Assembly (NCBI GenBank): GCA_963842885.1
Contig: CAWJIE010000002.1
Span: 96,001-160,000, forward strand
Direction: 5' to 3'
DNA length: 64,000 bases
Source: an uncultured Nitrososphaerota archaeon
GTDB lineage: Archaea; Thermoproteota; Nitrososphaeria; Conexivisphaerales; DTJL01
The notes under the pieces are model-generated. The model did not search any database, was not told the origin of the DNA, and saw nothing but the letters and a program-made list of their open reading frames with translations. Made by a program: the position numbers and the translations under genes. Below, in pieces: positions 768 through 58,167 of this stretch (positions are counted from its first letter, which is position 1; the number at the start of each line of letters is the position of its first letter).

Positions 768-795
768 ATTTGTCTAAGCCACAGCTTGGGCAAAC
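768..795 (-). repeat. Module F, 28-bp imperfect palindrome
   Basis: Reverse complement GTTTGCCCAAGCTGTGGCTTAGACAAAT matches 12705-12732 at 24/28 positions. Confidence 0.75.
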
Positions 796-950
796 TTAAA
801 GACCAATAACGGCCGTGGGCCAAGTGTTGCCCTCGATTTGGGGGGCGTCCACTTGAACTCCGCGGCCCCGGAGGCGTGTCTTGCGCCGTCATCAGGATGG
901 TCACTAACACCCAAATACGCCCTGCCCTACCAGTCTGAGAGGTACAGTGC

Positions 951-1937
951 TTGCAGGACATCATAGAGGTGGAAGACCTCGTCGTGGTGTATCCTGACGG
1001 AACGCGAGCTGTCGAAAATGTTTCATTTAGCGTCAAAGAGGGCGAGTTCTTCGGATTTCTAGGCCCGAACGGGGCGGGAAAGAGCACTACGATCAAGACT
1101 CTGACGACCCTTCTCCACAAGACCTCCGGCCAGGTCTCGGTCGCCGGTTATGACTTGGACAGGTTTCCAAAAGAGATCCGGAGGTCCATCGGCGTGCTGA
1201 CCCAGGAGACGAGCATAGACGTCGACCTCACCGGGAGGGAGAACCTGCGTCTCCAAGGGAGCCTGCAGCAGCTTCACGGCCAGGTTCTTGAGCGGCGTAT
1301 CGACGAACTGTTGAAATTGATGCGGCTGGAGGATGTAGCGAAGAAGCCCGCGGGTCGTTACTCCGGCGGAATGAAGAAGAGACTCGACTTGGCTTCGGCC
1401 CTGATTCACAAGCCGAAGCTCTTGTTCCTGGACGAGCCGACCAATGGCCTCGACCCTCAATCACGCTCCGCAATCTGGGAGTATCTGGAAGGCTTGAACA
1501 AGAATGAAGGCACCACGATCTTCTTGACTACGCAGTATCTGGAGGAAGCTGACCGGCTCTGCCGTGAGCTCTCGATAATCGACCACGGCAAGATCATCGC
1601 GAGTGGAACTCCTTCGGAGCTCAAGGCTGCGGTGGGAGGTGACAAGATCACTCTCACCTTGAAAGACGCATCGCTGAGAGCGAGGACGAGAGAGATCCTC
1701 AAGACGGTCCAAGGAGTCACCAACGTCATGGATTCGGACGACGGCGTTGTCGCCTATGCGAAGAACGCGGGCCAGATCATAGCTGACGTCGTTGCGACTT
1801 TGGACCGAAACGGCATCCGACCATCCTTCCTCAGCATCTCCTCTCCCACCTTGGACGACGTGTTCTTGCGCGAGACCGGTCGGAGCATCAGGCCCGAGGA
1901 GCTAACGAGGAAGGAGACGGAGCCGTTTCTTATGTGA
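951..1937 (+). CDS. ABC transporter ATP-binding protein (DrrA/NodI-like)
   Basis: Walker A GPNGAGKST, signature YSGGM, Walker B LFLDEPT. Confidence 0.95.
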   Translation: MQDIIEVEDLVVVYPDGTRAVENVSFSVKEGEFFGFLGPNGAGKSTTIKTLTTLLHKTSGQVSVAGYDLDRFPKEIRRSIGVLTQETSIDVDLTGRENLRLQGSLQQLHGQVLERRIDELLKLMRLEDVAKKPAGRYSGGMKKRLDLASALIHKPKLLFLDEPTNGLDPQSRSAIWEYLEGLNKNEGTTIFLTTQYLEEADRLCRELSIIDHGKIIASGTPSELKAAVGGDKITLTLKDASLRARTREILKTVQGVTNVMDSDDGVVAYAKNAGQIIADVVATLDRNGIRPSFLSISSPTLDDVFLRETGRSIRPEELTRKETEPFLM

Positions 1938-1946
1938 GCTGATTGG

Positions 1947-2714
1947 ATGACGATATTCCGCGACACGCAATCACTCTTGAAGAGGGGCCTGACAAAACTC
2001 GTCAGGAATCCAACCCTGCTTGCGACGAGTCTGGTCGAACCCTTGTTCTTTCTCCTGATCTTCTCGCAGCTGTTCCAGAAGCTAGGCGTCTTTCTGCCAG
2101 GCGAACCGGGAGGCTATCTTGCTTACCTTACTCCGGGGATTGTAATGTTTTGCGCCCTCATAACTTCTCCTCAGAGCGGAGTCTCGATCGCGAATGATCT
2201 GAATTCGGGGTTTCTCTCGAAGATGCTCCTGACTCAGGTATCGAGGCCTGCAATCCTATTGGGGAGGCTGCTGACGGATGTGTCCATGGTCGTAGCGCAG
2301 ACATTGATCACGATCATCGTTGCGATTGCGATGGGGGTGAGAATCTCCTCTGGGCTACCTGGAATCTTGCTCATGCTCCTGACGGTTGCGTTCTTTGAGC
2401 TGGCGTTTTCGGGGATCTTCCTTGCGATTGGGATGAGGACCAGGAAGACAGAGACGATCTCCGCCCTGGCTGGATTCCTCTATATGCCGCTGATCTTTTT
2501 GAGCAGCGCGATGTTTCCTGCTTCATTTTTCCCCTCTTGGGTGCAGACTATCTCCAGTTACAACCCCGTGAGCTACGCCTCGGACGTGACACGCGAGCTT
2601 GTACAGGGCGGACTGACCCTCAGTACGCTCGCGTCCGCGTACGCGTTGATCGGAGTCATCGCGATTGTCACCTTCGCAGCCACCCTGTACCAGTTCAGAA
2701 AGGTGATAAGCTAG
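1947..2714 (+). CDS. ABC-2 type permease
   Basis: About 6 TM segments, YLTPGI and NPVSYA motifs, directly after the ATPase gene. Confidence 0.93.
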   Translation: MTIFRDTQSLLKRGLTKLVRNPTLLATSLVEPLFFLLIFSQLFQKLGVFLPGEPGGYLAYLTPGIVMFCALITSPQSGVSIANDLNSGFLSKMLLTQVSRPAILLGRLLTDVSMVVAQTLITIIVAIAMGVRISSGLPGILLMLLTVAFFELAFSGIFLAIGMRTRKTETISALAGFLYMPLIFLSSAMFPASFFPSWVQTISSYNPVSYASDVTRELVQGGLTLSTLASAYALIGVIAIVTFAATLYQFRKVIS

Positions 2715-2721
2715 TCGACGG

Positions 2722-2949
2722 GTGATTGCGGCGTTCACATGCATCCGGGTGACCGTCACGAATACCATCGACAATTCCCCCTATTCGGTCAATATCAGGT
2801 TCCTTTCCGCCAGCCTGACGAGCCAGCTGGACTGGGCCTATGCCATAATCTGGTACCGGGGAATAGAGAGCGTGACTCCCTATGTCTACTGCATGATGGT
2901 CAACTCATCTGCTTTCATCGTCTCGATTCCCGGCGGCCCTCCGGTCTGA
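2722..2949 (+). pseudogene. Possible fragment of a secreted-protein gene
   Basis: Short ORF with beta-rich composition and no convincing start, ending just before module A. Confidence 0.3.
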
Positions 2950-2990
2950 CTTCAGGGGCGTTTGGTCTACCATTTCGCGCCCCCTAGACC

Positions 2991-3017
2991 AGCCCATTCG
3001 CAGGTCCAAGCCCACGT
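2991..3017 (-). repeat. Module A
   Basis: agcccattcgcaggtccaagcccacgt, the reverse complement of ACGTGGGCTTGGACCTGCGAATGGGCT. Confidence 0.9.
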
Positions 3018-3134
3018 CCTGAAACAAAGCTCGATCGATTATCAGCTCAACATTCATATCTTGGCAATACCTCAGTCTTCTACACGACCCAAGACAGTTC
3101 AGGTAAAACAGGGTACATTGCGATAGCCATCTTC

Positions 3135-3521
3135 TTGGTCGGGCTGGTGGCCTTCTTCGGACTTCAAGCATCTTTTGGGTCTGGTCTGCACACACAAATT
3201 CTTTGCAGCGAGAAGTTTGTTCTATGGGCGGCGACGGACTCATCGAACACCTCGCTTGTCATTTCTGTAACAAACAATGGGTGTGGCGCAGCGACCGTCA
3301 CTCAGGTCTTGTTTGACAACGCGTCGGTCGCGCTGAGCAGCATGACCCCTGAAGGGAATTTCACGAAAACCTCAGCCGGCGCTTTCCAACTGGCATCCGG
3401 GAAGACAGGAGAGCTGCTGATTGAGAAGTCCTCCCTAGACGTCAGTTCGGGACAGAGCTATGACATCTTGGTAATCACGGCAGCAGGGAACAGCTACCCT
3501 TCTCAGGGAGTCTGGCCGTGA
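3135..3521 (+). CDS. Membrane-anchored Ig/pilin-like hypothetical protein, possibly 5'-truncated
   Basis: Hydrophobic N-terminus; C-terminal YDILVITAAGNSY resembles archaeal pilin-like domains; frame stays open upstream towards module A. Confidence 0.55.
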   Translation: MVGLVAFFGLQASFGSGLHTQILCSEKFVLWAATDSSNTSLVISVTNNGCGAATVTQVLFDNASVALSSMTPEGNFTKTSAGAFQLASGKTGELLIEKSSLDVSSGQSYDILVITAAGNSYPSQGVWP

Positions 3522-3536
3522 GTTGCCTCTTCCTCA

Positions 3537-3607
3537 TCCAATTAATCAATTGTTTTCAATAACACAAAGATGAACGATCCCAGCCTATTTCGCAGGTCCA
3601 AGCCCCC
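3537..3607 (-). repeat. Module A+C composite
   Basis: Reverse complement closely matches 10385-10455. Confidence 0.9.
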
Positions 3608-3714
3608 GCCGCTTCACATAAGAGAGAGGAGCAAGCAAGTTCCACTAAAATCACGCGAGTTGAAGACTAGGACCGCGCCCCCCATTGAAGAGCAGCTTCC
3701 TCCTCACTTCGCTT

Positions 3715-4695
3715 TCATCCCGACCCGAGGACTATTGGAGCCATGATGTCCACGTTGAGGGTGACCTGATAACTTTGTCCGTTCATCAAGAGATTGACAA
3801 CTACAGTCTGTTCCTCGTAGGGGCTGTTCTGGGGAGCACTGACTGTAGTGAAGAAGTAGCGCACCTGATATGGCTGAATCGTAGTGACAAACGGCTGCGT
3901 TGAATATGGGGCGTTGAGGTCGTCTTGGTCATAGGACCACATCTTGAGCCAGCTGGCAGTCACCATGGTGGATAGTGATACACTGAGATTCGGAGCGTTC
4001 GCCGAGCTCGGCACATAGGCTATGCCCCAGAGTATGTTTTCGTGATGCCCCGGATTGACCACCACGCTGGGGTAAATCGGCAGTGGACTGCCTCTTGAGC
4101 CGGAGCCTATCAAGAAGACTGGCTCGGTGGGCTCAACAGGGACGGTGATGTTACCTGTTCCGAATGCGATGATGAGTGGCACCGTGGAGGGAGTGGCACT
4201 CGATGATGACACGACGCCGCCCGCCAGGTATAAGGTTGCATTGCCGCTGCCATCCGCGCCAATCGTGACCGAGGAAGCCGAGAGCCAGGCAGCAAGAGGG
4301 ACTTGAGGAAGGTCTAGAGCCAGGGGGATGGTTGTTCCAGGCTGCCCGCGGACTACGATTGGGAAGGCCTCCCCTGAGACCATACTGATTCCACCGTCGC
4401 TGAACGTGAAAGCGATACCACGACACGCTGCGTTCTCCACGGTCGCGTTGAAGCTCCCGTCGGTGAAGGTGAAGCCAGGCAGAGTCCAGCAGGATACTGT
4501 TGGATAGCTGTAGTTAGTGGTCGGCGTCGTTGTACGGAAAGTGATGGTTGGGAAGGGGGAGTTGTAGTAGCTGAAGGGCTGAGGTTGAGCTGTGGAGGAA
4601 GCTTTTGGCAAGACAACGACTGCAAGACCCGCCACGTCCAGGAGGAGCAGGGCAAACGCAATCGTCACCAATATCTTGCTGACCGCCCTTCTCAA
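3715..4695 (-). CDS. Secreted/membrane-anchored hypothetical protein
   Basis: 326-aa ORF, N-terminal signal/TM, Ser/Thr/Pro-rich beta-type body. Confidence 0.75.
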   Translation of the reverse strand: MRRAVSKILVTIAFALLLLDVAGLAVVVLPKASSTAQPQPFSYYNSPFPTITFRTTTPTTNYSYPTVSCWTLPGFTFTDGSFNATVENAACRGIAFTFSDGGISMVSGEAFPIVVRGQPGTTIPLALDLPQVPLAAWLSASSVTIGADGSGNATLYLAGGVVSSSSATPSTVPLIIAFGTGNITVPVEPTEPVFLIGSGSRGSPLPIYPSVVVNPGHHENILWGIAYVPSSANAPNLSVSLSTMVTASWLKMWSYDQDDLNAPYSTQPFVTTIQPYQVRYFFTTVSAPQNSPYEEQTVVVNLLMNGQSYQVTLNVDIMAPIVLGSG

Positions 4696-4830
4696 GCCAA
4701 ATCCAAGCTCATGGTACCGAGGGACAGCCCATAAACCTAGGCCTTAGAACGACTCGATTCTCTTCCAGACAAGACCCAGTTCAATCAGACGGTCGACAGA
4801 ACTAAATGCTAATAGGAAAGAGACGGCCAA

Positions 4831-5199
4831 ATGGAGGACAGACGTCTGATGGCAAGGCTGAGGCTGCACAGGCGGACGGCCATCCGTGTGGGCATGCTGC
4901 TCGTAGCCGTTTCCTTCGTGGGAGCCCTCATCGGGAGTGCGATCGCCAATGCTACACAATCCGACCCTCTGGCCTTCTATGCCGTGGGCGGGACAATAGG
5001 GTTCTCCGGCTTGATTCTGCTTCTAGTCTCTCCCTTCCTGCCTCAGCCTCGTGGGGATGAGTACCGTGGGATGGGTGACCTTCTGTCACAAGAGAAAGTC
5101 CACTACGGCAACTACGCAGTGGGCAACTGGCGGACCACCCTCGACGAGATGGACAAGGAAGACAAAGAGAAGCGAAAGCGTGAAACCGACCACCAGTAG
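4831..5199 (+). CDS. Small two-TM hypothetical protein
   Basis: Two hydrophobic helices and a charged tail; stop lies about 12 bp before an A/C repeat. Confidence 0.65.
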   Translation: MEDRRLMARLRLHRRTAIRVGMLLVAVSFVGALIGSAIANATQSDPLAFYAVGGTIGFSGLILLLVSPFLPQPRGDEYRGMGDLLSQEKVHYGNYAVGNWRTTLDEMDKEDKEKRKRETDHQ

Positions 5200-5210
5200 T
5201 CATCGAGAAG

Positions 5211-5258
5211 ACAGAGATGAACTGATTCAGCTCCATTCTTCCCAGGTCCAAGCCCACG
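5211..5258 (-). repeat. Module A plus partial C
   Basis: acagagatgaac...cccaggtccaagcccacg. Confidence 0.85.
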
Positions 5259-5635
5259 TTCCTAACCGGGCGGTTTATGTCGCTAGATTGAATCCGGCAA
5301 GCGTGTTCGGGCAGTGAACAGTATATCAGAAGGCAGCCATGCAGTTCTTCATATCAAACGGAGGACGATCGCCGCCGACGCAATCCTGCTCGTCATAGGT
5401 TTTGTCCTGCCCGTCCAGCCCACCAAGGCGCCGACGGCCACAGCTATAGCGCTGCTCGGATGAAAATGTGCAGAACCAAAGGCCGGAGCTGAACCAGGCT
5501 CCATATGAGCCGAAGGTCCAAACCGGTCTGCGCCTGGGAACACCATAGATTTCTCGGCAAGACAGGACGGCCGGAATGTGTTCTCTATGGTGCGACCGGC
5601 AAAACTTTATACATACGTAGGAATCCCACGTTCCC

Positions 5636-6859
5636 GTGAATTATCCCGGGGGAAGGCATAGCCTGAAGGTCTTCACGTCAATTCTGCTTGTTTCACTTGT
5701 GGCACTGTCGGGAGTGGGTGCCGTCCACGCCTCCGCCGTGGTCGCCACCGTGCAGGTCATCGGCAACCCGACCAACATGGTCTACGATTCCGGCCGGGGG
5801 GAGGTGTTCCTGACCTATTCCGGAAGTAACGGTGGTGGCGGGATTCAGTCCATCTTTGACAGCAACAACACCGCCGGCGGATATGTTGGGACTGGAGGAG
5901 GGTCTGCGCTCGCCTACGACTCGGCCAAGGGCGAGGTCTTCGTGAACGTCGGCCAGAATTTTGTCGCGATAGTGAACGACACCACACTTGGCATATCGGA
6001 CGTGCCTGTGGGGCAGGGCCCGGCCAGCCTCGCATACGATTCTGGCGCTGGCGAAGTATTCGTCGCCAACACCGGATCGGGCACCGTGTCGGTGATATCG
6101 GACAGCAGCAACGCGGTGGTGGCCAACATAACCGTGGCAGCAAATCCCACGGCCGTGGCCTACGACCCCGCAAAGAGCGAGGTGTTCGTGCTGTCCCACA
6201 ACAATACTGGCTCTCTAGGCGCCCTTCTATCGGTCATCTCGGACAGCTCCAATAAGGTGGTCGCGACGGTGAGCCTCGGGGCCGGCGCGGGGACCATGGC
6301 CTTCGATTCCGGGAAGGGGGAGATATTCGTGCAGTCCGTCGAGAGCATCCAGGTGATATCCGACAGCAGCAACAAGGTCGTCGCCAGCATACCTCTCGGC
6401 ACGGGGGACACCTACGCCATGGCCTACGATTCGGGCAAGGGCCTGATCCTGTTCACCGACGATCACGGCCTGAACGTGATATCGGACAGCAGCAATTCGA
6501 TCGTCGCGCTGGGCGTGACGGCTGCCGGGAGCGCTCCCTGGGGGCTCGCTTACGATCCGGCCACGAACGAGGTCTTCGTGGCCAACTACGGCCCAAACGA
6601 CGTCATGGAGTACACGGTCACGGTCCTGTCTGACGCTTCGTTGCCAACCTCGTCGACCACCACCACTACGACCACCACCACGACAACCACTACTCCGACA
6701 ACCACCTCTACACCCGGCAAGAGCGGAGGCGGCGTGCCGGAGTTCCCGTATCAGCTCCTCGCGGCGGCGGCCTTCACGGCCATCTTGATGCTCTCGTATC
6801 TGCTGGTCCGGTCCCGGGCCTTGCCGAAGGCTCCGGCGGCAGCGAGGAGAGCCTCGTAG
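5636..6859 (+). CDS. YVTN/YncE-type beta-propeller surface protein with PEF-CTERM sorting signal
   Basis: Repeated AYDS.KGEVFV..VISDSSN.VVA units, Thr-rich linker, then VPEFP + TM + basic tail. Confidence 0.9.
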   Translation: MNYPGGRHSLKVFTSILLVSLVALSGVGAVHASAVVATVQVIGNPTNMVYDSGRGEVFLTYSGSNGGGGIQSIFDSNNTAGGYVGTGGGSALAYDSAKGEVFVNVGQNFVAIVNDTTLGISDVPVGQGPASLAYDSGAGEVFVANTGSGTVSVISDSSNAVVANITVAANPTAVAYDPAKSEVFVLSHNNTGSLGALLSVISDSSNKVVATVSLGAGAGTMAFDSGKGEIFVQSVESIQVISDSSNKVVASIPLGTGDTYAMAYDSGKGLILFTDDHGLNVISDSSNSIVALGVTAAGSAPWGLAYDPATNEVFVANYGPNDVMEYTVTVLSDASLPTSSTTTTTTTTTTTTTPTTTSTPGKSGGGVPEFPYQLLAAAAFTAILMLSYLLVRSRALPKAPAAARRAS

Positions 6860-6891
6860 GGCGGACCTCCAATCGGCTCGGTGGCGGTTCC

Positions 6892-7827
6892 TTGATCAGG
6901 GTGGGGCGGGGGGACGCCAGGCTCGTGGCCTGGCTGGCGGTCACGTCCTTCGTCGCCGTCACCCTTTATCTTAGACAGCTGATGCTTCTGGTGTCGGGGC
7001 TCGATGAGCTCCTCACCTCGACCCTCGGGACCGTCTTTCCGGCGTATCCCTTCCTCGCCCTACTAGTCCTCCTCACCGCGCTCCGCTGGAAGGACTTCCA
7101 AAGGGCATTCGCTGCCGAAAGGGGGCTGGTCACCAAACCATGGATTCGGCTTGCAGGGGTGGCGTTGATCCTCCTTCCGGCAGCGCTGTGGGCCCTCTTG
7201 TTCGGCCAGGGAGGGGCGCCGACGCAGTATCTTGGGATGGAGTTGGCCGCCTCCTCTCTGGTGTTGGTAATATATGGCAGCCTGTTGGCGACCAGCCCCA
7301 CGCTCTGGAGGATGATGCTCCCCTACGCATCCCTGTATGTGGTAGGACTGGTCTCACCGCTCTTCTTAGTGGAGGCGCTGGGGGGGCAGCTGGCTTCCCT
7401 GTCGAGCGGAATGGCGGCCGTCATGACGAGAGCTCTTGGGATCCCAGTGGCATGGCAGGGCGTCTCGTTCTCCTTCGTCTCCGCTGCGGGTGAGCCCATA
7501 AGCTCGGTCGTGACGCCCGCCTGCTCGGCGGTCTACTCCATCGGCATATACCTGGGCCTCCTCGGCCTGATGTACTTGGACATGAGGTCCAGCCCGACGA
7601 CGATAGCCGAGTTCGCCATCCTAGGGGTAGCCATCATCCCGCTCCTCGACTCTGCGAGGATCGCCATCACGATCTGGTTCGGCTTCGAAGGCGGGTCGGC
7701 CGCGTTCTGGGGCATCCACGATTGGCTCGGCTACGCCCTCTTCCTGGCCTTCTACATCGGGGCCTTGCTGGCATACTCTAGGACGGTCAGTAGGCCTTCA
7801 GGGCCGGCAAGCACCTTCACACCCTGA
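6892..7827 (+). CDS. Exosortase/archaeosortase family protein (Cys type)
   Basis: Multi-TM; catalytic-type Cys (TPACSA), Arg (DSARI) and His (IHDWLG); adjacent to a PEF-CTERM substrate. Confidence 0.85.
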   Translation: MIRVGRGDARLVAWLAVTSFVAVTLYLRQLMLLVSGLDELLTSTLGTVFPAYPFLALLVLLTALRWKDFQRAFAAERGLVTKPWIRLAGVALILLPAALWALLFGQGGAPTQYLGMELAASSLVLVIYGSLLATSPTLWRMMLPYASLYVVGLVSPLFLVEALGGQLASLSSGMAAVMTRALGIPVAWQGVSFSFVSAAGEPISSVVTPACSAVYSIGIYLGLLGLMYLDMRSSPTTIAEFAILGVAIIPLLDSARIAITIWFGFEGGSAAFWGIHDWLGYALFLAFYIGALLAYSRTVSRPSGPASTFTP

Positions 7828-7886
7828 CCCCTGGCGCATTTAACTTCACATGAAACCCCACGCTTAACTTACAGCCTCCAAGGAGG

Positions 7887-7971
7887 GCCCGTTTTCGCAG
7901 GTCCAAGCCCACGCCGAAGATGGGCGGCTAACGAGACAGTAATCCTTCCCAGCATCGATAGATATCCAAAA
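7887..7971 (-). repeat. Module A (7887-7914) plus partial module B (7944-7971)
   Basis: gcccgttttcgcaggtccaagcccacgc and ccttcccagcatcgatagatatccaaaa. Confidence 0.85.
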
Positions 7972-8004
7972 GGGTCAAAAGCCCGCCTGCCTATACTCTC
8001 ACCA

Positions 8005-8157
8005 ATGCCAGTCTGCGACGTCTGCGGCAAGATCGTGAAAGACCTGAGAAGGCACAAGGCCCGTGGCCGCTGCGGCAAGAAGGGGAAGACGACGCGGGCG
8101 CCGCCTCGCAAGTACCAGCAGGGGACGCCCGAGTTCAGGTTGGGCCTGGACCTCTAG
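8005..8157 (+). CDS. 50-aa basic zinc-finger-like microprotein (not in ORF track)
   Basis: Manual translation MPVCDVCGKIVKDLRRHKARGRCGKKGKTTRAPPRKYQQGTPEFRLGLDL*, a CxxC..H..C pattern. Confidence 0.6.
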   Translation: MPVCDVCGKIVKDLRRHKARGRCGKKGKTTRAPPRKYQQGTPEFRLGLDL

Positions 8158-8294
8158 CTCTCTGGATGGAGGTCGCCGCGACCGTTGGGGCGACCATGGG
8201 ACTCGGCCAGTATCGCGACTATTAGGCTCAGGTCGAAAGGTAGGACGTAATCCGGGTGTTATGTTTATCTCCTTCACTGTGCGAAGCACGGCTC

Positions 8295-8522
8295 ATGACG
8301 CTATATGCGAGGGTGATGTCGTGGTGGACGGTCGGTCCGGGGGGCATCGCTGACAAGAACCTGTCAAAGAACCTGAGCAATATCATGGAGGCCATCCAGA
8401 GGGGCGGGGGGAAGATAACGAGCTTGACTTCTCAGCTTCAGGCCTTTCAGCTTCAGGCCATAAATCAGGGAGTAGTCCTGTACTTGATTCAGTACGAAGC
8501 TTCTTCCTACATCGATGTCTGA
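8295..8522 (+). CDS. Small hypothetical protein
   Basis: 75-aa ORF from ATG 8295 with an AT-rich TATA-like stretch upstream. Confidence 0.55.
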   Translation: MTLYARVMSWWTVGPGGIADKNLSKNLSNIMEAIQRGGGKITSLTSQLQAFQLQAINQGVVLYLIQYEASSYIDV

Positions 8523-8559
8523 CTCAGATCGGCTGTCTCGTGGCTAGTTTCGCATGCAC

Positions 8560-8633
8560 GTTGCTGCTGGAAAAGAAATCAATATCATTCAGCCGCCCAC
8601 CCCAGACGTGGGCTTGGACCTGCGAAGATGGGG
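8560..8633 (+). repeat. Partial module B (8560-8588) plus module A (8607-8633)
   Basis: gttgctgctggaaaagaaatcaatatcat ... cgtgggcttggacctgcgaagatggg. Confidence 0.9.
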
Positions 8634-8652
8634 TAAGGTTAGGAGCTCTGAG

Positions 8653-9141: not shown

Positions 9142-9285
9142 ATCCTGAGGTCACCGAAACGAGCATCCCTTTTATGGTTTTACGAAAAGTTGAGCTGGCA
9201 GGTTTCGGCACGCCTCCGATAGCCACGCGTACGGGCATCGACCTCGATCTCCAACGTCAAAGAGCTTGAACCAAAGACCCGTGGA

Positions 9286-9437
9286 CGTGGGCTTGGACCT
9301 GCGAATGGGAGCCACCGTAGGATGCCCTTGGATATCTGTCGCTGCTGGAAAAGAAATCAATATCATCGGCCTGACCGACGACGACTTCTCAATCGCTTAA
9401 TCATCTTTGTGTTATTGAGAACAATAGGTTAATTGAA
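9286..9437 (+). repeat. Module A (9286-9309) + B (core 9331-9364) + linker + C (9401-9437)
   Basis: Most complete composite copy; B-linker-C recurs at 41438 and 58061. Confidence 0.92.
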
Positions 9438-9506
9438 CGAGGGCTGAAGACGGGACCTCGACCGTTCGGGAACCACTTATAGGCTGGCTCGAATATGTAA
9501 TCACTG

Positions 9507-10370: not shown

Positions 10371-10384
10371 GCCAATAATCAGGC

Positions 10385-10455
10385 CGTGGGCTTGGACCTG
10401 CGAAATGGGCTGGCTCGTTCATCTTTGTGTCATTGAAAACAATAGGTTAATTGAA
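10385..10455 (+). repeat. Module A+C composite
   Basis: cgtgggcttggacctgcgaaatgggctggctcgttcatctttgtgtcattgaaaacaataggttaattgaa, about 15 bp after a stop codon. Confidence 0.92.
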
Positions 10456-10605
10456 TGGGGAAAGGGTCGACCAGCTGTCACGGAGTAGATTCCCAGGTGG
10501 CAACTGTTGGTCAAGTCAGAGCGGGAGATGGTACGCCTGCTGAGGACCCCTCCAAATTCAGCTCAGGCATCCACCCCGAGCAAGGGGACTAGCTGAGCGC
10601 GAGCA

Positions 10606-12652: not shown

Positions 12653-12665
12653 GAGAGCTCGAAAT

Positions 12666-12732
12666 GTGGGCTTGGACCTGCGAAATGGGCCGATTCAGGT
12701 TTAGGTTTGCCCAAGCTGTAGTTTAGGCAAAC
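12666..12732 (+). repeat. Module A (12666-12691) plus module F (12705-12732)
   Basis: gtgggcttggacctgcgaaatgggcc then GTTTGCCCAAGCTGTAGTTTAGGCAAAC. Confidence 0.88.
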
Positions 12733-12802
12733 AGTAATTGCACCTTCAGAAGAGTGCGCGTCATGCAAAAGGCGTTTTAAGAGGGGTGGTCATCGTTGAC
12801 TA

Positions 12803-13414: not shown

Positions 13415-13425
13415 AGGGGAAGGTT

Positions 13426-13752: not shown

Positions 13753-13790
13753 CGGCTATTATGAGGCATCGCAAGGGGTATAACACTTGG

Positions 13791-13848: not shown

Positions 13849-13857
13849 ATGCTTCGC

Positions 13858-14511: not shown

Positions 14512-14587
14512 CAGGGGAACGGGTTGACGCGAAACGGAAGACGGTTGCCCAAGTACTTTGCCCTACCAACGAAATAGGGTTCAGCGA

Positions 14588-14614
14588 GTGGGCTTGGACC
14601 TGCGAATGTGGCTG
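14588..14614 (+). repeat. Module A
   Basis: gtgggcttggacctgcgaatgtggctg. Confidence 0.88.
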
Positions 14615-14645
14615 ACCGAAAGGAGTTATGATGACCTTGAAACAG

Positions 14646-16264: not shown

Positions 16265-16267
16265 CGG

Positions 16268-16699: not shown

Positions 16700-16810
16700 G
16701 AACAGCACCAGCCTTGCCAGTAGGGCCTCTGGTATTTGACCACTGCCCCCCATCATCGCCCTCCCTGCAAGCAGGAGATCTGATTACAGCACCAATGTAT
16801 AGTCCCAGAA

Positions 16811-16861
16811 GCGAGTCCGCACCGTTGGGGATTCGCCCCTAGATGGATACCAGTCCTGTCC
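16811..16861 (+). repeat. Module D
   Basis: gagtccgcaccgttggggattcg identical to 35043-35065; stem GCGAGTCC/GGATTCGC. Confidence 0.82.
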
Positions 16862-27612: not shown

Positions 27613-27720
27613 GATGGCTAATATGTCTCTAGGGCGCTGTGCGGAACTGCTCTAAGCAGCGTGCGAGACAATCTTGGGCCTATTGAATGAAAGAGCAACC
27701 GTCGCAGGATGCCGCTGTTC

Positions 27721-27761
27721 TTGGATATCCATTGCTGCTGGAAAAGAATTCAATGTCATCG
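27721..27761 (+). repeat. Module B
   Basis: ttg GATATCCATTGCT GCTGGAAA AGAATTCAATGTC atcg. Confidence 0.88.
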
Positions 27762-27888
27762 ACCCACAAGACAGAACAGAGACGGCGTCGGGGGCCAATT
27801 CTGGCATGAGCGTGGCATCCCTGGCCTGGGCGAATTCAACATGGTGAGTTACCGACGAGATTAGAAAAAGGGATGGGCAGGACGTGGC

Positions 27889-28233: not shown

Positions 28234-28372
28234 CAGTGACGAAGCGGCCTTCCCGATATTTAACTACTCCACCTTTCAGTCTGCCCCAGGCCAGGTGTTG
28301 AAGCCCGAGTTGAAGACGATGAGGTGGCAGTCTCCTTTGGCGGCACTCTGGGCCTCTTTCACGGAGTCGTGG

Positions 28373-28426
28373 ACTTGGCCCTTAGATGCTAACCGGGATA
28401 GGGACTAGGATGCTGTGCTCAAACCG
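28373..28426 (+). repeat. Module E
   Basis: acttggcccttagatgctaaccgggatagggactaggatgctgtgctcaaaccg. Confidence 0.85.
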
Positions 28427-28658
28427 GACTGACCATCTACCTCTCGACGGGTGAGCGGTGGGTTCCTCAGTGCGTCAGAGACGGAGGTGTCGGGCGTTCC
28501 ATCCTTGGCCATAGGATGGATCAAGGCTCGCTCGGCAGATGGTATTCTTAGTATTTGTCTCAAGCTTGAAGTGATATCCCAAACTAGAGATACAAGAGAG
28601 CGATCAAGCATTGCGGTCCTGGACGCATCGAATCCCGCCCGTCGACCTGACGGCGGAA

Positions 28659-30302: not shown

Positions 30303-30466
30303 CCTTTGCACTATCGTAGATATGATATGGAACTTTGATGTAGGCTAAGCATCAAGAGCCTATCTCAAGATCATCCTTTGATAGACCATGATGGAGCAGG
30401 CGAGCTGGATGAGCCCAAGTCTTCGTCAGAATGATAACAACGCCTCTTTCCTGTTGGACGTCATAG

Positions 30467-30510
30467 TTTTGGATATCTATTGCTACTCGAAAAGAAATCG
30501 ATATCATCGG
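30467..30510 (+). repeat. Module B
   Basis: GATATCTATTGCT ACTCGAAA AGAAATCGATATC (30472-30505); arms 11/13 inverted. Confidence 0.88.
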
Positions 30511-30531
30511 GATTATACTTTATAGGCTTGG

Positions 30532-32085: not shown

Positions 32086-32223
32086 GCAATATGAAGCGAC
32101 CTTCCCGATATTTAACAGTTCAGCCTTTCAGTCTGCGCTAAGCCAGGTGTTGACGCCCGAGTTTAAGACGATGGGGTGGCAGTCTCCTTTGGCGGGACTC
32201 GGCCTCTTTCACTGAGTCAGTAG

Positions 32224-32275
32224 ACTTGGCCCTTGAGTTCCAACCGGGATAGGAGCATAGGATGCGATGCTCAAG
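32224..32275 (+). repeat. Module E
   Basis: acttggcccttgagttccaaccgggataggagcataggatgcgatgctcaag. Confidence 0.87.
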
Positions 32276-32423
32276 CTCTTTGCCGAAGAGGTCGTCAAGT
32301 CGTTCTCCTGAGATCCACCTCCCCCTGGGCCGTCTTCTCCGCAACCCACTTCGCTAGGCAGAACGCCCGATTGCGAAACGTTATTACAACCAGTCATTCG
32401 GTACATCTCCGGTCAGCAAGGCC

Positions 32424-35023: not shown

Positions 35024-35154
35024 CGTAGGCTTGGACTTGCCAGAGTCCGCACCGTTGGGGATTCGTGGCCATGTCGATACTAGACTGCCCCTCTCAGTCA
35101 ACTTGGCCCTTAGGTTCCAACCGGGATAGGACATAGGATGCTGTGTTCAAACCG
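35024..35154 (+). repeat. Partial module A + D + E composite
   Basis: cgtaggcttggacttgc, gagtccgcaccgttggggattcg, agtcaacttggcccttaggttccaaccgggataggacataggatgctgtgttcaaaccg; begins about 6 bp after a stop. Confidence 0.9.
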
Positions 35155-35177
35155 ACGAGGAATGTCGCCGACCCTCA

Positions 35178-36074: not shown

Positions 36075-36186
36075 AGGTCGGAAAGGTTGTGTCATTTGTC
36101 ATATTTGAGTGTTAAATCGTTCCTCTAAGTCAACCTGTTCCATAGGCTCCAGCCGGGATAGGAGCATAGGATGCTATGCTCAAACC
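36075..36186 (+). repeat. Diverged D + module E
   Basis: agtcaac...gccgggataggagcataggatgctatgctcaaacc; perfect stem GAGCATAG/CTATGCTC at 36162-36181. Confidence 0.85.
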
Positions 36187-36281
36187 ACAGCTTTCTCTGA
36201 GGCATAGATAGGCCTGCCGTGTCAGGCGGATTGCAATGAGACGAGGATGCACTTATATTAGTCGCTGCCGACGATAGAAGC

Positions 36282-36814: not shown

Positions 36815-36913
36815 ACGTTATTTGCCATATCTGAGGATCAAACCGTCCCTCCCAGTCAACTTCCCCATTAGGTTCTGACCGGGATAGGGACATAGGTTCC
36901 TACGCTCAAATCG
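36815..36913 (+). repeat. Diverged D right part + module E
   Basis: agtcaacttccccattaggttctgaccgggatagggacataggttcctacgctcaaatcg. Confidence 0.85.
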
Positions 36914-36997
36914 AAGACCGGCGGGCCGGGGCGGATTCGGGGCCAAGTCAGTACTAATGCGGGGTCGCAGCAGATTCTGCAATGCTAATACGTCTTA

Positions 36998-39255: not shown

Positions 39256-39352
39256 GGATTCCGGGTCATGTCGGTATTGAACCGCCCCTCCGAGCCAACC
39301 TTCCCCATTAGGTTCTGAACGGGATAGGGACATAGGATGCTATGTTCCAACG
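39256..39352 (+). repeat. Partial D + module E
   Basis: ggattccgggtcatgtcggtattgaaccgcccctc ... ttccccattaggttctgaacgggatagggacataggatgctatgttccaacg. Confidence 0.87.
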
Positions 39353-39356
39353 CTTG

Positions 39357-41351: not shown

Positions 41352-41542
41352 GACGATCCTCGCTTGATCATGTTTGAGTCATTGAAAACAATAGGTCAAT
41401 TGACCGGGGGGAGGGGCGCCCCGAGCCCATGGCAGTCTTGGATCTCTGTTGCTGCCGGAAAAGGAATCAATATCATCAACCTGACCTACGACGATTCTCG
41501 CTTAGTCATCTTTAGCATATTGAAAGCAATAGGTTAATTGAA
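41352..41542 (+). repeat. Linker+C (41352-41403) followed by B+linker+C (41438-41542)
   Basis: Two tandem C copies and one B core (41441-41474). Confidence 0.88.
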
Positions 41543-41682
41543 TGGGAGATAGCCAGCGGAGAGTGTAGGGACCTATCGGACGACCTTCACCATCGCCATG
41601 CGGTCGACCGCGAAGCCTTTCTTCTTGTGCAGTCTTATGGCATATTCATTCTAAGCCGAAAGAGCGACGGTCCTTGACTCCT

Positions 41683-43599
41683 TCAGGCCAGGGGGGCCGT
41701 CGCGAGGGTGGAGAACGAGGACAGGTCGCTCACCATGACCTCGCTCTGCGATATGGTGTAGAGGCAGTTCCCTATGATGACGCTCCTGTCTATCTGCAGG
41801 CTGCTGTTGGGCGAGTCGCCGAAGTTCTGGCTGGCGGGGTACTGGGAGACCTTGCCGAGGAGCGTGAAGCCTGTGTCCGTCACGTTGAAGACATAGACGC
41901 CCTGCCAGACGATGTCGCCATAGGGCGGAGGGCTGTTCGGGTCAACCGTCTGGTTCCCGCTCACCTGCGCGAGCGTGACCGGGATCACCATTATGTTCCG
42001 TGTCGAATCGAAGGTGAACGCTAGATGGTCGCTGAGCACGGGGGAATCCGTCCCGCGGTCCCCTATCAGGTACTTTGAGACCTGCGTCGACGTCCCGTTG
42101 TCGAAGACCTGGAAGAGGGAAAGCTTCAGCCCGAGGTACCAGGCGAAGTCGCCGTTGGATGATGGCACCGCGTCCTTCCCGACGCCTATCAGGTACCCGT
42201 TCGGTAGAGGATGGAGGTAATCAGAGAAGCCGGTGACCTTAAGGGCGCTGAGGATGACGGGGTTGGTCACGTCCTTGAAGGAGATGGCGAACAGCGGGTC
42301 GATCTGCTCGAATGTGACCACGTAGCCCATGTCATCAACGAAGCGAACGGCATAGATGTTCTCCCCTGGCGCGATGTTCTTGAGGGCGGCCACTTGGCTC
42401 ATGTTCTGGTCGAGCACGTAGACGTCGTCGCTCGTCGTCCCTACCCCGTTGATGACGGCCGTTCCGCTCGTCGCCACCCTGAAGTACCCGTCGTATTCGT
42501 CCATCGAGAACTGGTTCAGGACCGCCCCCGGCACCGAGGCCACGGCCGCCACGCCGACGGCGCCGTTCGAGTACGAAGCGCGGAATATTGTGCTGTTCTG
42601 CGATTGTACCGTCGTGGTCGGCGTCGCGATGCCACCGTTGAAGACGTCCCCGGGGATGCCGTCGGCGTAGAACACGGGATAGTTGGCGTAAACGACGTAG
42701 ATGTTAGCCGTGGACACGTAGATCGTCGAGGACGGTCCGGTGAGGACTGTGGTGACGTTGTTCGTCCCCGTGGACATGCTCATGCTTACGATCATCGTGT
42801 AGTAGCTGATGAGCGTCACGTTCTGCGCGTAGAATATGGAGGACGGCGGGAGGACCACCATGTTGCCGTTCTCGTACACTTCTGGCATCGCGGCCGTCGC
42901 GTTGCCGTTCGTCCACTGGTAGGAGGGCTGCTGGACGACGGCGTAGGCGTATCCCTGGGCCATGCGCGCCGACACGTAGCTCCCTTGGATGCTGGAGTTC
43001 TCCATCAGCCTTGGCGATGAGAGGTTGGAGACGTCATAGAGGAGGAGGTCGATGTACATGTCGCCTGAGGACCGCTGGCTGACGACGAAGAGGCGGTCCT
43101 GATAGACCTCTATCCCCAGCACGTTGTCTCCCTTGAGGGAGATCGTAGAAAGGACGGCCGTCGAATTCGGCGGGTAGGCGTTCATTATCGTCACGGCGTC
43201 GGTCGTCGAAACGAAGAGGTGCGTCCCGTCCGTCTTCACCCTGTCTACCTCGTCGACGCCCTGGACTTGGACGTTGGTGCCCGTGAACGAGGGGGTCGAG
43301 ACCGAAGAAGTGAGTGCGGCGGCGGCGTTACCCATGTCCGGCAAGCCGACGAAGATCCCGCCGAATCCGCCCAATGTGCCGTACCTCTGCACGCTCTTGG
43401 CGTTCGCATCGATGAAGGCCCGAAGTCCAGGGTAGCCCTGGAAGGAGCTTATCCCCTCCGCGACCGCATTTGCCGGAGGAACGTTATAGTTCAGGGACAG
43501 CACGGAGAGCATGCCAAGCAGGCCCGCCGTGCATACTATTCCTATGACGAGAATCGCAGCATTCTTGCGCCACGTGTGGTTCGCCGAAGCCTTCTGCAT
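41683..43599 (-). CDS. Secreted beta-propeller domain protein (COG4880/Beta_propel-like)
   Basis: TNVQVQGVDE.D.VKTDG, LNQFSMDEY, YAVRF..YVVTF.Q.DPLF and GFSDYLHP motifs. Confidence 0.9.
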   Translation of the reverse strand: MQKASANHTWRKNAAILVIGIVCTAGLLGMLSVLSLNYNVPPANAVAEGISSFQGYPGLRAFIDANAKSVQRYGTLGGFGGIFVGLPDMGNAAAALTSSVSTPSFTGTNVQVQGVDEVDRVKTDGTHLFVSTTDAVTIMNAYPPNSTAVLSTISLKGDNVLGIEVYQDRLFVVSQRSSGDMYIDLLLYDVSNLSSPRLMENSSIQGSYVSARMAQGYAYAVVQQPSYQWTNGNATAAMPEVYENGNMVVLPPSSIFYAQNVTLISYYTMIVSMSMSTGTNNVTTVLTGPSSTIYVSTANIYVVYANYPVFYADGIPGDVFNGGIATPTTTVQSQNSTIFRASYSNGAVGVAAVASVPGAVLNQFSMDEYDGYFRVATSGTAVINGVGTTSDDVYVLDQNMSQVAALKNIAPGENIYAVRFVDDMGYVVTFEQIDPLFAISFKDVTNPVILSALKVTGFSDYLHPLPNGYLIGVGKDAVPSSNGDFAWYLGLKLSLFQVFDNGTSTQVSKYLIGDRGTDSPVLSDHLAFTFDSTRNIMVIPVTLAQVSGNQTVDPNSPPPYGDIVWQGVYVFNVTDTGFTLLGKVSQYPASQNFGDSPNSSLQIDRSVIIGNCLYTISQSEVMVSDLSSFSTLATAPLA

Positions 43600-43652
43600 G
43601 AGCTATCGGGAGGATGTGTCGTGATTAAAGCTCAACTAAACGAACATCCGTT

Positions 43653-43790
43653 CTAAAGCGCCGAACGCCCATCCGTTCCTTCATCGGAGAGGGCGTAGTT
43701 TCCGTCAGGACCGAGGACAATCAACCCTTCAAGTTTCTTTAAGTGGGAATTCAAGTTGCCGCTGCTGGATATGACCATCACGGACAGCAT
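43653..43790 (-). pseudogene. Winged-HTH gene fragment
   Basis: Manual translation ..ISSSGNLNSHLKKLEGLIVLGPDGNYALSDEG..; N-terminal part missing, abuts module A. Confidence 0.6.
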
Positions 43791-43798
43791 GTCTTAGA

Positions 43799-43869
43799 CG
43801 CAGGCTTGGACTTGCGAAATGGGCTGACTGGTTCATCCTTGAGTTATTGAGAACAACAGGTCAATTGAA
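43799..43869 (+). repeat. Module A+C composite
   Basis: cgcaggcttggacttgcgaaatgggctgactggttcatccttgagttattgagaacaacaggtcaattgaa. Confidence 0.9.
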
Positions 43870-43957
43870 TCAGGTAAAGGTCTGCCAACGGCGGCGAGTT
43901 TCCTTCTGTCTAACATCAACGCATCAACCTTGCAGGACGGGGGTTCTGTGAAAGACG

Positions 43958-45740: not shown

Positions 45741-45746
45741 AGACGG

Positions 45747-45785
45747 TTTGGGTATCTATTGCTGCTGGAAAAGAAGGCGATATCA
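45747..45785 (+). repeat. Module B
   Basis: GGTATCTATTGCT GCTGGAAA AGAAGGCGATATC, about 7 bp after a stop. Confidence 0.87.
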
Positions 45786-45880
45786 GCTCTCAGAGTCGAG
45801 CCGCCGTTGAACATCAACCCGAAGCCGTGACTTCGAACCGTCCACTCGAATAGAACTAAATACGCAACCCCGTCTATGCA

Positions 45881-54785: not shown

Positions 54786-54855
54786 CCTATCCAACCGGTA
54801 TAGAGACTCAGGAAGCTATGTTCAAGCCAGCCCCCGCTGACGTCCAAGCCTGCGT
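54786..54855. repeat. Degenerate module E (+, 54786-54828) and half module A (-, 54841-54855)
   Basis: ccaaccggtatagagactcaggaagctatgttcaagcc; cgtccaagcctgcgt. Confidence 0.65.
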
Positions 54856-56099: not shown

Positions 56100-56458
56100 G
56101 AGTGAGGTCGAAGGGGTATCGTCCAAGCCGGGTCTTCGTGGTAGGTGTGCCCTGGGAGGGGCACCTGGACAGGTGATGGCGAACGGCGGGCTTCGTTCAC
56201 GCTCCGCTTTTCCATGTTCTAAGTACTAGACGTAACACCGGAGAGCCTCATCCATGCAGGAGAAGGGGGGACACCACGACTCAAGGTCGGATGGAGGTGC
56301 ATCGTCGGCCGGGCGCGCCTCCCTATCAGAAAGTGTTTAATCCCAGCTTCTTGGAGTGGCTTCCAATGTCGTCTCGGCGGGGAGCCGCATCAGCATCCGC
56401 TGCGCAGGCGAGGCGGACGCCTGAGCGGGCTGGCCGGCATGGGCGGACCTGATGGCGC

Positions 56459-58010
56459 ATGAGCTTCTTCAGCGCCCTGCTATTGGTCGTCTCCCTAGCC
56501 GTCACGTTCATCTTCTTCGCCTACGGATTCAACATCTTCTACATGCTGAGGCTTTCGAGGAAGTACAAGAAGCCCACCTCCCAGGGCCACGACAAGCCCA
56601 CCATAGCCATCCATCTCCCCATATTCAACGAACGATACGTCGCCGAGAGGCTCCTGGAGGCCTGCTCCGCCACCGCCGAGCTCTACGGAAAGGAGAAGGT
56701 GTACGTCTCCGTCCTCGATGACTCCGATGACGAGACCACCTCCATACTTCAGGAGGTCGCCGGCGGCTACAGGGCCAGGGGTTTCAACTTCGACGTGCAG
56801 CACAGGGATGACAGGACCGGCTTCAAGGCGGGGGCCCTCAACGCGGCCCTCACGAAGGCCAAGGAGGAATTCATCGTGGTCTTCGACTCGGATTTCATGC
56901 CCAAGAAGGGACTTCCTGGACAGGGCGGCCAGCTACATAACGGCCGACGATGGGCTGGGGGTGGTCCAGTTCAGGTGGAGCTACACCAACCGGGAGTACA
57001 ACTGGATAACCAGGGCGGTCTCCATAGGCATGGATGCCCACTTCATAATCGAGCAGCCTGCGAGGTGCGCCGGCGGCCTGTTCCTCAACTTCAACGGCAG
57101 CGCCGGCATCATCCGGACCAGGGCGCTCCGCGAATCCGGCGGCTGGCAGTCCGACACCTTGGCCGAGGACCTGGACGCCAGCTACAGAATGCAGCTCCTT
57201 CGCTACCGCATTCAGTACGTCGACGACGACGTCCCCTGCGAAATCCCGCCCACGGTAGCGAGCTTCAAGAGGCAGCAGGCTAGGTGGGCCAGAGGGAGCC
57301 TGCAGGTGGCCAAGAAGTCGCTCCCCCGGCTCCTGAGGGACAAAGGCGTCACCGTGCGCCAGAAGCTGGAGGCGTCCATTCACCTGACCTATTACACCGT
57401 CCATCCCCTGATGTACATCTCCTTCCTGCTGGCCGCCATGGCCGCCATATTCAACATCAACAGCATCAAGGTCGTCATCCCCACGGCTGCTCAGATAGGC
57501 GGGCTCGGTCAGGGCGGAGTGGCCGGGGTCACCTGGACCGACCCGGTTTGGCTGGTCTTCGCGCTCTCCATCGTCCTGTGCACCGCGGCGGCCTGGATAT
57601 ACTACATCGTGGCCATGAGGATGCAGCACATCAGCGTGGTCAGAAACTGGCGGTACCTCCTGGCCCTGGGCTTCCTGGGCTACGGCATAAGCGTGAGCAA
57701 CACGCTCGAAGCGGCGAAGGCCTTCCTGCTCAAGGGGAGCGGCGCGTTCAAGAGGACGCCGAAGTACGCGGTGATCGGGAAGGAGGGCTCCTGGAAGGAC
57801 AAGAAATACCAGGTGCCCCTTGACTACACGTCGCTGGTGGAGGCGCTCAGCGTGATACTGGCGGCCGTGGCCATCGGCAGGGCCGTCGCCTTCGGCAACT
57901 TCGGCATCATCATAATACTGGGCGTCTACGCGTTCGCCTACGTCTTCGTGTTCTCCACGACCATCTCCCAGAGCGGCAAGGAGAACGCCATCCCCCTCAT
58001 GGCTTCCTGA
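56459..58010 (+). CDS. GT2 membrane glycosyltransferase (cellulose synthase-like), frameshifted near 56905
   Basis: LPIFNE, DDS, KAGALN and FDSDF in one frame; AEDLD and QQARW in the next. Confidence 0.9.
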
Positions 58011-58060
58011 CGGCTTCACCGGGGCCCTATGGTCGAGGCCGGCTTGCGCCCACGTCATTC

Positions 58061-58167
58061 TTGGATATCTATTGATGCCGGATAAGAAATCAATATCATC
58101 GATTTGACCGACGATGACGACTCTCGCTTAGTCATCTTTATGTTATTGAAAACAAGAGGCCAGTTGG
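58061..58167 (+). repeat. Module B + linker + C
   Basis: ttggatatctattgatgccggataagaaatcaatatcatc...ctctcgcttagtcatctttatgttattgaaaacaag. Confidence 0.9.

Follow-up and report, generated by a model that had tools for sequence, protein, structure and literature searches.

What separates, and perhaps moves, the blocks of unrelated genes that follow one another along one stretch of the genome of an uncultured Nitrososphaerota archaeon (GTDB order Conexivisphaerales)? The stretch, contig CAWJIE010000002.1 of assembly GCA_963842885.1 from position 96,001 to 160,000 (64,000 nucleotides (nt); hereafter the window, or C2:96001-160000 of genome G000), had been described in an earlier note, written from the letters alone, as an array of gene cassettes delimited by a family of hairpin modules (A to F) and shuffled by a recombinase encoded elsewhere. 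We arrive at a related answer: with a probability that we put at about one half, the modules are directional joints at which cassettes are gained, lost and shuffled, and we propose that a sequence-specific recombinase acts on them in trans. The window belongs to a highly contiguous assembly (2.03 Mb, 11 contigs, 58% G+C), which we compare with four other species of the same genus (G001 to G004, of which G001 is 59% complete) and with a metagenome set of 75 independent stretches (355 kb) drawn from public contigs that contain an exact 19-mer. These comparison genomes and contigs are short-read assemblies that could mis-join at repeats, a risk limited, in our judgement, by the conserved part of most joints being shorter than the usual assembly word sizes. 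Gene positions throughout are our own simple open reading frame (ORF) picks.

The modules recur far above chance. With up to 3 mismatches, the strings of A, B, C and D match the window 4, 4, 3 and 2 times against 0.00 expected; an unbiased repeat search recovers 7 B, 6 C, 5 E and 6+4 A copies; and a search with profiles built from the window copies (nhmmer) places 24 module loci there with about 37 copies of A to F, which bears out the earlier count of about 40. Across G000 the same profiles match A 57, B 44, C 36, E 20, F 22 and D 7 times, and these matches group into 133 loci. The earlier note had credited module F with two copies; 8 are found in G000 by BLAST and 22 by profile search. Every combination it had named (A-C, B-C, A-B-C, B-A, A-D-E and A-F) is recovered by profile search, the architectures in the window being A, A-C, B-A, A-B-C, A-F, D, D-E, B, E, C-B-C and B-C, with A-D-E also present, and many copies are truncated. 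Module A is the principal joint and usually ends a unit; any C comes after it and begins the next one. B, D, E and F may be added, B and E mostly on the closing side.

At the centre of A lies a core of 17 nt, GGGCTTGGACCTGCGAA, that is practically invariant across 100 aligned A copies from four species, with conservation dropping sharply at once on both sides; B, C and E are conserved more evenly along the alignment and more weakly than this core. In the consensus of the 100 copies A is composed of short direct repeats and has no inverted arms. We observed that A and B can be read as one frame (…VGLDLR…WISVAAGKEINII…) with a stop just before C, for example at 9194-9397 on the plus strand of the window, and that the two frames also fit in the order B-A at 8543-8633. 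A coding origin of A-B was rejected: its variability shows no three-base rhythm, and the frame has no relative among proteins of 37-119 and 120-2000 residues.

The family is confined to the genus. In BLAST the A-B-C joint matches 3 of the 4 other species and none of the 36 genomes searched outside the genus. Allowing at most one mismatch, the 17-mer occurs 51 times in G000, 50 in G002, 43 in G003, 22 in G001 and once in G004, with a single hit across 31 genomes of other genera in the order and none in any genome for the reversed-pattern control. G004 carries instead about six copies of a variant core in which GG replaces the middle AC (contigs C11, C51, C93 and C95); three of them are co-oriented on one contig as a mini-array, and one is followed by a C-like stretch. 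Among viral contigs the 17-mer appears in 8 stretches, which we estimate to be about chance level; 5 of these are one unrelated coding sequence, none has the flanks of A, and the core of C has 0 matches. In the literature on Conexivisphaerales, archaeal integrons, attC sites and cassettes, intergenic repeats and tandem accretion, surveyed up to the bounds of supplements and subscription journals, we found no description of the module family.

Modules are not evenly spread over the genome. They are mostly intergenic (108/124 G000 loci, by simple gene calls) and clustered in islands, so that the array placed by the earlier note at 768-58167 is present and extends well beyond it, over C2 14.7-179 kb, with at least 11 further islands elsewhere in G000. 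The modules of an island are co-oriented: over the whole of G000, neighbouring module loci share a strand in 110 cases and differ in 15, a bias reached by 0 of 10,000 strand shuffles; for neighbours less than 5 kb apart the counts are 92 and 5, and between neighbouring hits in the metagenome stretches 199 and 4. On C2 the modules lie on the minus strand from 14.7 to 104.0 kb, with one exception, and all on the plus strand from 104.5 to 179 kb, which leaves a single flip of polarity in the window (Table 1). Replication polarity was rejected as the cause: GC skew on C4 is positive over 0-340 kb, yet arrays of both polarities occur there. Exactly at the flip in the window lies a gene for a cysteine-rich basic protein of 50 residues that belongs to no Pfam family; it has 3 copies in G000 (the others on C7 and C4), and all five species retain the start of the gene.

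The genes between the joints do not follow this polarity. Module strand and flanking gene strand are independent (33/30/25/18 in the four classes), in keeping with the earlier description of unrelated genes in either orientation, and a role as promoter or terminator was rejected on that ground. Joints that begin 6-15 bp after a stop codon, which the same description had called frequent, do exist and make up the smaller part, a module being present within 20 nt of about 19 of 114 flanking gene ends. The median gap between module loci is 680 nt in the metagenome stretches and 680-720 nt across datasets, so joints in the wider data are spaced by a median of about 0.7 kb; parts of the window hold larger units. 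Among the inter-module intervals of 200-2500 nt in all data, 180/254 contain one dominant ORF, which is antisense to the modules in 104 of the 180 and sense in 76.

Gene order is lost in these islands and kept outside them. Compared with its sister species the window yields only blocks of 0.3-3 kb scattered over many contigs, at 66-95% identity, whereas a control core region (C5:260-280 kb) keeps its order both against a single G003 contig, for about 18 kb at 64-69%, and against G002, at 66-80%. The earlier note had named an even spread among core genes with conserved synteny as the pattern that would speak against it; we find the reverse. Several blocks stand well above the core level: 13774-17005 (an MFS transporter and two ChrB_C genes) is 94% identical to G002:C2, 41683-43707 (a beta-propeller cassette) reaches 95% with G002:C126 and 89% with G003:C22, there as part of a different array next to tRNA-Ser, 56140-58046 reaches 87% with G002:C97, and 59887-62213 is 91% identical to a sister species. 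Since blocks at 87-95% stand against core identities of 64-80%, their sequences point to recent exchange between species. Blocks that are adjacent on array contigs of G002 and G003 correspond to separate contigs and arrays in G000, and shared blocks keep their orientation relative to module polarity (20 the same, 1 opposite). We also noted two module-free stretches inside the array, at 17-27.7 kb and 46-58 kb of the window, whose genes (a class II aminoacyl-tRNA-synthetase-like gene and a radical-SAM gene, for example) are 66-80% identical to the sister species, that is, at core level, yet lie on scattered contigs.

The ends of shared homology coincide with modules more often than expected. 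Of 84 block ends, 22 lie within 30 nt of a module, compared with 4.5% for a random base; among the 52 intergenic ends 16 do, compared with 15% for a random intergenic base. The one-sided comparisons are counts of pairs that are not independent events. Among 308 A loci, 64 pairs are homologous upstream only, 49 of which lose their homology between +15 and +34 of A; 34 are homologous downstream only, 31 of which gain it between -5 and +9; a further 83 are homologous on both sides. Repeating the count on slightly different sets gave the same picture. C goes with the downstream cargo, with 27 downstream-only pairs (26 starting at its 5' edge) against 5 upstream-only; E goes with the upstream cargo (7 pairs against 0 downstream-only), as B mostly does (11 against 4).

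Two loci display this at the level of single units. In a three-way alignment of window 2992-3573 with the C4:335.6 kb locus and G002:C51, the conserved unit consists of C, about 510 nt of cargo and A; its neighbours differ: A or B precedes it, C or nothing follows, and the DNA further out is unrelated. At tRNA-Ser, the tRNA gene and an adjoining module C are syntenic in G000 and G003 (90.6% identity), and beyond them G003 has about 5.3 kb of A-bounded units, including the beta-propeller unit of the window at 89%, where G000 has 558 nt. Truncated and duplicated genes abut modules in the window as well, as had been claimed: 43924-44193 is a cut copy of gene 13858-14511, and the DUF6176 gene with its module E is present twice. 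Elsewhere in G000 (C3:127854-128306) we observed an ORF for a transporter-like membrane protein that is cut where a B with a partial A begins.

These observations would be explained if units were excised and re-inserted at the joints. Recombination between two co-oriented joints would release the unit between them as a circle carrying one joint, and the circle could then recombine with any other joint and so be inserted with fixed polarity; the cycle would be run by a sequence-specific recombinase supplied in trans and acting on the 17-nt core. Such a cycle would give each array a single polarity, would keep units in one orientation relative to it while leaving their genes free to point either way, and would produce mosaic joints. 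A cassette gene pointing either way would have to bring its own promoter. We favour a specific enzyme acting in trans because the short core is invariant in four species and replaced by a different fixed core in the fifth, and because it is kept in about 50 copies per genome at core-gene identities of only 64-80%.

Integrons are the obvious comparison. A report on archaeal integrons, in the sections bearing on their arrays, records integrons in Archaea, including sedentary chromosomal arrays and clusters of attC sites lacking integron-integrases (CALINs), with short ORFs 'generally in the same orientation' and attC sites between them that share the single-strand fold of bacterial ones (PMC9668308). 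The arrays described here are similar in that co-oriented sites separate short accessory cassettes, that cassettes appear to pass between species and that often no integrase lies on the same contig. They differ in that integron cassette genes are mostly co-oriented with their sites, whereas here 104 are antisense and 76 sense, and in that one genome holds many arrays of either polarity. They differ also in the site itself, attC being a structure-specific hairpin with little sequence conservation and the modules having an invariant core and no fold. The hairpin label of the earlier note has to be dropped: when A, A-C, B-C, A-B, E and A-D-E were folded as single-stranded DNA (ten folds), the z-scores lay in the range -1.14 to +0.61, the covariation terms in consensus folds of six B-C and six E copies were positive, that is, penalising, and module F has no consensus structure, only an inverted repeat of 5-7 bp. 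Rfam, which the same note had suggested consulting, returned no match at gathering score in the window, none at E-values up to 1 in 2900-14700 and none at E-values up to 0.1 on two of the IS110 loci described below. Hairpins and structured RNAs were thus rejected, the folds being no better than those of shuffles and Rfam giving no match; the modules are polar, non-palindromic and not hairpins, and by fold z-scores, covariation terms and Rfam they do not resemble attC. Neither IntI nor attI was identified, judging by the places that PF00589 matches, none of them on C2.

The sites of the Xer recombinases are likewise of a different kind. A dif or pdif site is some 28 nt long, its two inverted arms separated by a short spacer, and alternates in orientation around the modules it bounds; judged by site layout, the short repeats in A are direct and not inverted, and successive joints are co-oriented and not alternating. 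The earlier note had stated that these motifs lack attC R boxes and the dif consensus; in the comparisons run, the modules do not qualify as attC, dif/pdif, repetitive extragenic palindromic (REP) or miniature inverted-repeat transposable element (MITE) sequences.

Several results weigh against joints served by a dedicated enzyme. The window contains no recombinase or transposase gene by protein families and by genome-wide searches for tyrosine, serine, Y1, TnpB and IS110 enzymes, and an integrase-like ORF occurs in only 1/75 metagenome stretches. Neither the two tyrosine-recombinase families examined nor the serine, IS110 and Y1 enzymes are distributed across species as the modules are. The core sites of tyrosine and serine recombinases show inverted-repeat arms, and A has none. 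As many as 62 of the 84 block ends lie more than 30 nt from any recognised module, and the enrichment over random intergenic bases is only about two-fold; the pairs behind the one-sided homology counts are non-independent, and some repeat joins in G002 and G003, both short-read metagenome-assembled genomes (MAGs), could be assembly errors. No circular or emptied-site molecule was seen: Logan contigs of 4 DNA runs break at modules and their joint sides are at most 33 nt long, so the joints in these runs only reflect repeats and neither show nor exclude excision. The earlier proposal of a cassette-shuffling system with its recombinase elsewhere is accordingly upheld for the cassettes, the joints and the lack of a recombinase in the arrays, and a dedicated enzyme is putative; recombinase and HUH genes do exist elsewhere in G000, and none of the families examined follows the modules across species.

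The main rival, which we consider unlikely, is host homologous or short-homology recombination, which would need no dedicated enzyme: modules of 20-170 nt would serve as portable homology after DNA uptake or cell-to-cell transfer, and conversion would keep them alike. Arrays without a recombinase, and the lack of any that co-varies with the modules, fit this, as do breakpoints that are spread over the whole conserved stretch of the module, be it A, B, C or E; crossovers at shared pieces are expected to yield mosaic joints such as A-C, B-C, A-B-C, B-A and C-B-C, and recombination between direct repeats likewise keeps polarity. The form of conservation is what tells against it. The invariant part is just 17 nt long with decaying flanks, whereas conversion tracts would be expected to homogenise more, and a core identical in four species with a fixed variant in G004 looks like a recognition sequence.

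A further alternative, which we regard as improbable, is that the modules are selfish mosaic intergenic repeats that invaded islands already variable, their coincidence with block ends being secondary. Their high copy number, restriction to the genus, intergenic position, modular build and frequent truncation suit this, and insertion sequences land in them as they do in other repeat families: IS1111 elements insert into attC, and insertion sequences also target REP. In G000 three matches to IS110-family transposases (C3:189896-190327, C7:19668-20099 and C3:2080-2515) belong to elements mapped to C3:~189.3-190.6 kb, C7:~19.1-20.3 kb and C3:~1.4-2.7 kb. Each interrupts B at one and the same nucleotide, runs in the direction of the modules and has TG duplicated. 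Their flanks read ...TATTGC-TG on the left and TG-CTGGAA... on the right and, when joined, rebuild an intact B in 3/3 cases; the elements themselves have terminal inverted repeats of about 15 nt and ends unlike the modules. In this they resemble IS110 and IS1111 elements elsewhere, which insert into repeats at a specific site and in a specific orientation, and the likeness is that of a parasite which uses the joints, and does not extend to the joints. The insertions show that B is a specific, recognisable and long-lived site. The assemblies of G001, G003 and G004 lack the element, which makes its recombinase an unlikely candidate for the enzyme that runs cassette exchange. Bridge-RNA recombination has been described for IS110-family elements, in the portion of the literature drawn on here (PMC11208160), and the non-coding left end of these elements could encode a candidate bridge-type RNA.

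The repeat families that such invaders would resemble are built differently. In the bacterial interspersed mosaic elements (BIMEs) of E. coli and the Neisseria intergenic mosaic elements (NIMEs) with dRS3, the units are palindromic and are not co-oriented over long stretches. The likeness lies in short modules combined in varying order, intergenic and partly beside variable genes; the modules here differ in being polar and non-palindromic and in marking cargo breakpoints. They contain no palindromes of the REP/BIME type, and the one Y1 gene, which would stand for a REP-associated tyrosine transposase (RAYT), is not flanked by modules; the ends of A-B-C or C...A are not inverted repeats as in MITEs, and the ends of IS605-type and IS110-type elements are unlike the modules. 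That Y1 gene (C5:213342) adjoins tnpB in an ordinary IS605-type element with no module within about 50 kb; its dissimilar ends led us to reject a link to HUH enzymes, and the HUH/REP-like analogy of the earlier note is not supported. Selfish spread thus lacks terminal inverted repeats, hairpins and an autonomous element with matching ends, and it leaves unexplained both the co-orientation over tens of kilobases whatever the gene direction and the one-sided homology that ends exactly at A and C.

Less probable still is that integrative elements accumulated one after another at an anchor gene (tandem accretion) and left the modules behind as decayed att duplications, with the integrases and most element genes later lost. 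Tandem accretion works through att copies of the end of the anchor gene and builds up kilobase units with element genes. It shares with the arrays here direct, co-oriented att copies separating units that could be moved by an enzyme in trans; the differences are a single anchor gene and long units with element genes there, no common anchor found and single ordinary genes here. On mechanism, tandem accretion of integrative elements at att sites (PMC5704250), together with their integrase-less derivatives, the cis-mobilisable elements (CIMEs), is the closest analogy. Co-oriented direct repeats are the signature of accretion, one array begins beside tRNA-Ser with its C kept in two species, an A-like 13-mer (8141-8153) supplies the final codons of the small conserved gene where polarity switches, and tyrosine-recombinase genes or fragments occur elsewhere in G000, one fragment abutting an isolated C. 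No common anchor, however, was found for the islands, of which there are at least 12 per genome; apart from the one C there is no resemblance or adjacency to tRNA, the units are single genes of about 0.7 kb without mobile-element genes, the G002 homologue of the small gene lies inside an array of opposite polarity and not at its head, and the A-B frame has no protein relative. Sites derived from tRNA genes were rejected, given that the window contains 0 tRNA genes and that, of 31 in G000, only tRNA-Ser directly adjoins a module (C).

The tyrosine recombinases of G000 deserve a description of their own. A PF00589 search finds 5 places in the genome, and links from integrases to modules amount to weak, non-significant C-like hits beside two integrase genes. 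One family has four G000 copies, including C4:323310-324515, C5:293406-294248 and C4:76.5-77.6 kb: a full copy starts with residues resembling a translated tRNA T-arm, a degraded copy lies next to tRNA-Arg, and a 5'-truncated copy ends directly at an isolated module C. G000 also encodes zinc-ribbon tyrosine recombinases, at C5:9507-12109 and C3:398624-400138.

That the modules are binding sites of a chromatin, insulator or regulatory factor, or small RNA genes, unrelated to recombination, would suit a short invariant core with variable flanks in intergenic DNA and is nevertheless scarcely credible, given an orientation unrelated to gene direction, varying distances to starts and stops, no conserved fold or Rfam match, and confinement to variable islands at homology breakpoints.

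Directional joints for cassette exchange remain the reading we prefer. Its fullest form would be a new archaeal gene-capture system, with a sequence-specific directional recombinase encoded away from the arrays, a polar 17-nt core, self-expressed single-gene cassettes and a dozen or more arrays per genome, moved between species; we advance this tentatively, considering the odds somewhat against it. That integron-like or accretion-like cassette arrays have a new directional, sequence-specific recombination system behind them is similarly a minority chance in our estimation.

The positions of the joints and associated features in the window are collected in Table 1. The cargo includes transporters (ABC, two MFS, CitMHS, ClC and MscS), two ChrB proteins, an exosortase, hydrolases, dehydrogenases, a nitroreductase, glycosyltransferases, radical-SAM proteins, beta-propellers and many proteins without a family. 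Two genes look split into adjacent ORFs, a HAD hydrolase (Hydrolase_3 N- and C-terminal halves, 19590-20487) and a B12-binding radical-SAM gene (60707-62159); both reflect frameshifts or sequencing errors. The NHL/beta-propeller genes 5636-6859 and 39357-41153 contain internal tandem repeats of about 126 nt in 6-7 units.

Table 1. Joints, cassettes and associated features of the window (window positions; strand as given for the module or gene).
Feature	Position	Strand	Method
Module F	753..805	-	nhmmer, BLAST
Module A, 3' joint of cassette 3026-3536	2993..3020	-	profile search, three-way alignment
Gene of cassette 3026-3536, antisense to modules	3135-3521		
Composite A-C; C part opens cassette 3026-3536	3525..3610	-	profile search, three-way alignment
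Module A, then decayed start of C	5234..5261	-	profile search
Composite B-A, last joint of minus polarity	7888..7975	-	profile search
Polarity switch: minus array on left, plus array on right	7976..8542	.	
Zn-ribbon-like gene, 50 aa, within polarity switch	8005-8157	+	
Composite B-A, first joint of plus polarity	8543..8633	+	profile search
Composite A-B-C, sole full three-module joint in G000	9283..9446	+	profile search
Composite A-C, 12 nt past stop of gene 9507-10370	10382..10467	+	profile search
Composite A-F	12663..12748	+	profile search
Module A within block 13774-17005	14587..14616	+	profile search
Module D	16806..16850	+	string match, profile search
Module B	27714..27772	+	string match, profile search
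Module E, linked to DUF6176 gene 27889-28233	28365..28427	+	profile search
Module B	30464..30514	+	string match, profile search
Module E, linked to second DUF6176 copy 31741-32085	32214..32279	+	repeat search, profile search
Composite of diverged A, D and E; begins 10 nt past stop of gene 34065-35018	35028..35155	+	
Module E	36121..36188	+	profile search
Module E	36847..36915	+	profile search
Module E	39286..39354	+	profile search
Composite C-B-C	41353..41554	+	profile search
Beta-propeller cassette	41683..43707	-	cross-species block comparison
Composite A-C, then truncated copy of gene 13858-14511	43796..43881	+	repeat search, profile search
Module B	45744..45802	+	profile search
Module E, weak partial	54790..54828	+	profile search
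Composite B-C; homology of block 56140-58046 to G002:C97 (87%) stops 8 nt upstream	58054..58177	+	

How archaea acquire and reshuffle accessory genes outside integrons is poorly known, especially in the Nitrososphaeria that do not oxidise ammonia. In this genus of soil and peat archaea about 130 joints per 2-Mb genome arrange transporters, redox enzymes, glycosyltransferases and unknown genes into exchangeable units, an array that resembles an integron made of different parts. If a dedicated enzyme recognises the 17-nt core, it would constitute a directional site-specific recombination system of a new kind, whose simple site is set by sequence alone and which is open to direct testing and possibly of use; should host recombination suffice, the arrays would show how a flexible genome can be ordered by short conserved 'handles'. 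In both cases the module family offers a marker for flexible islands and cassette traffic in peat and soil metagenomes.

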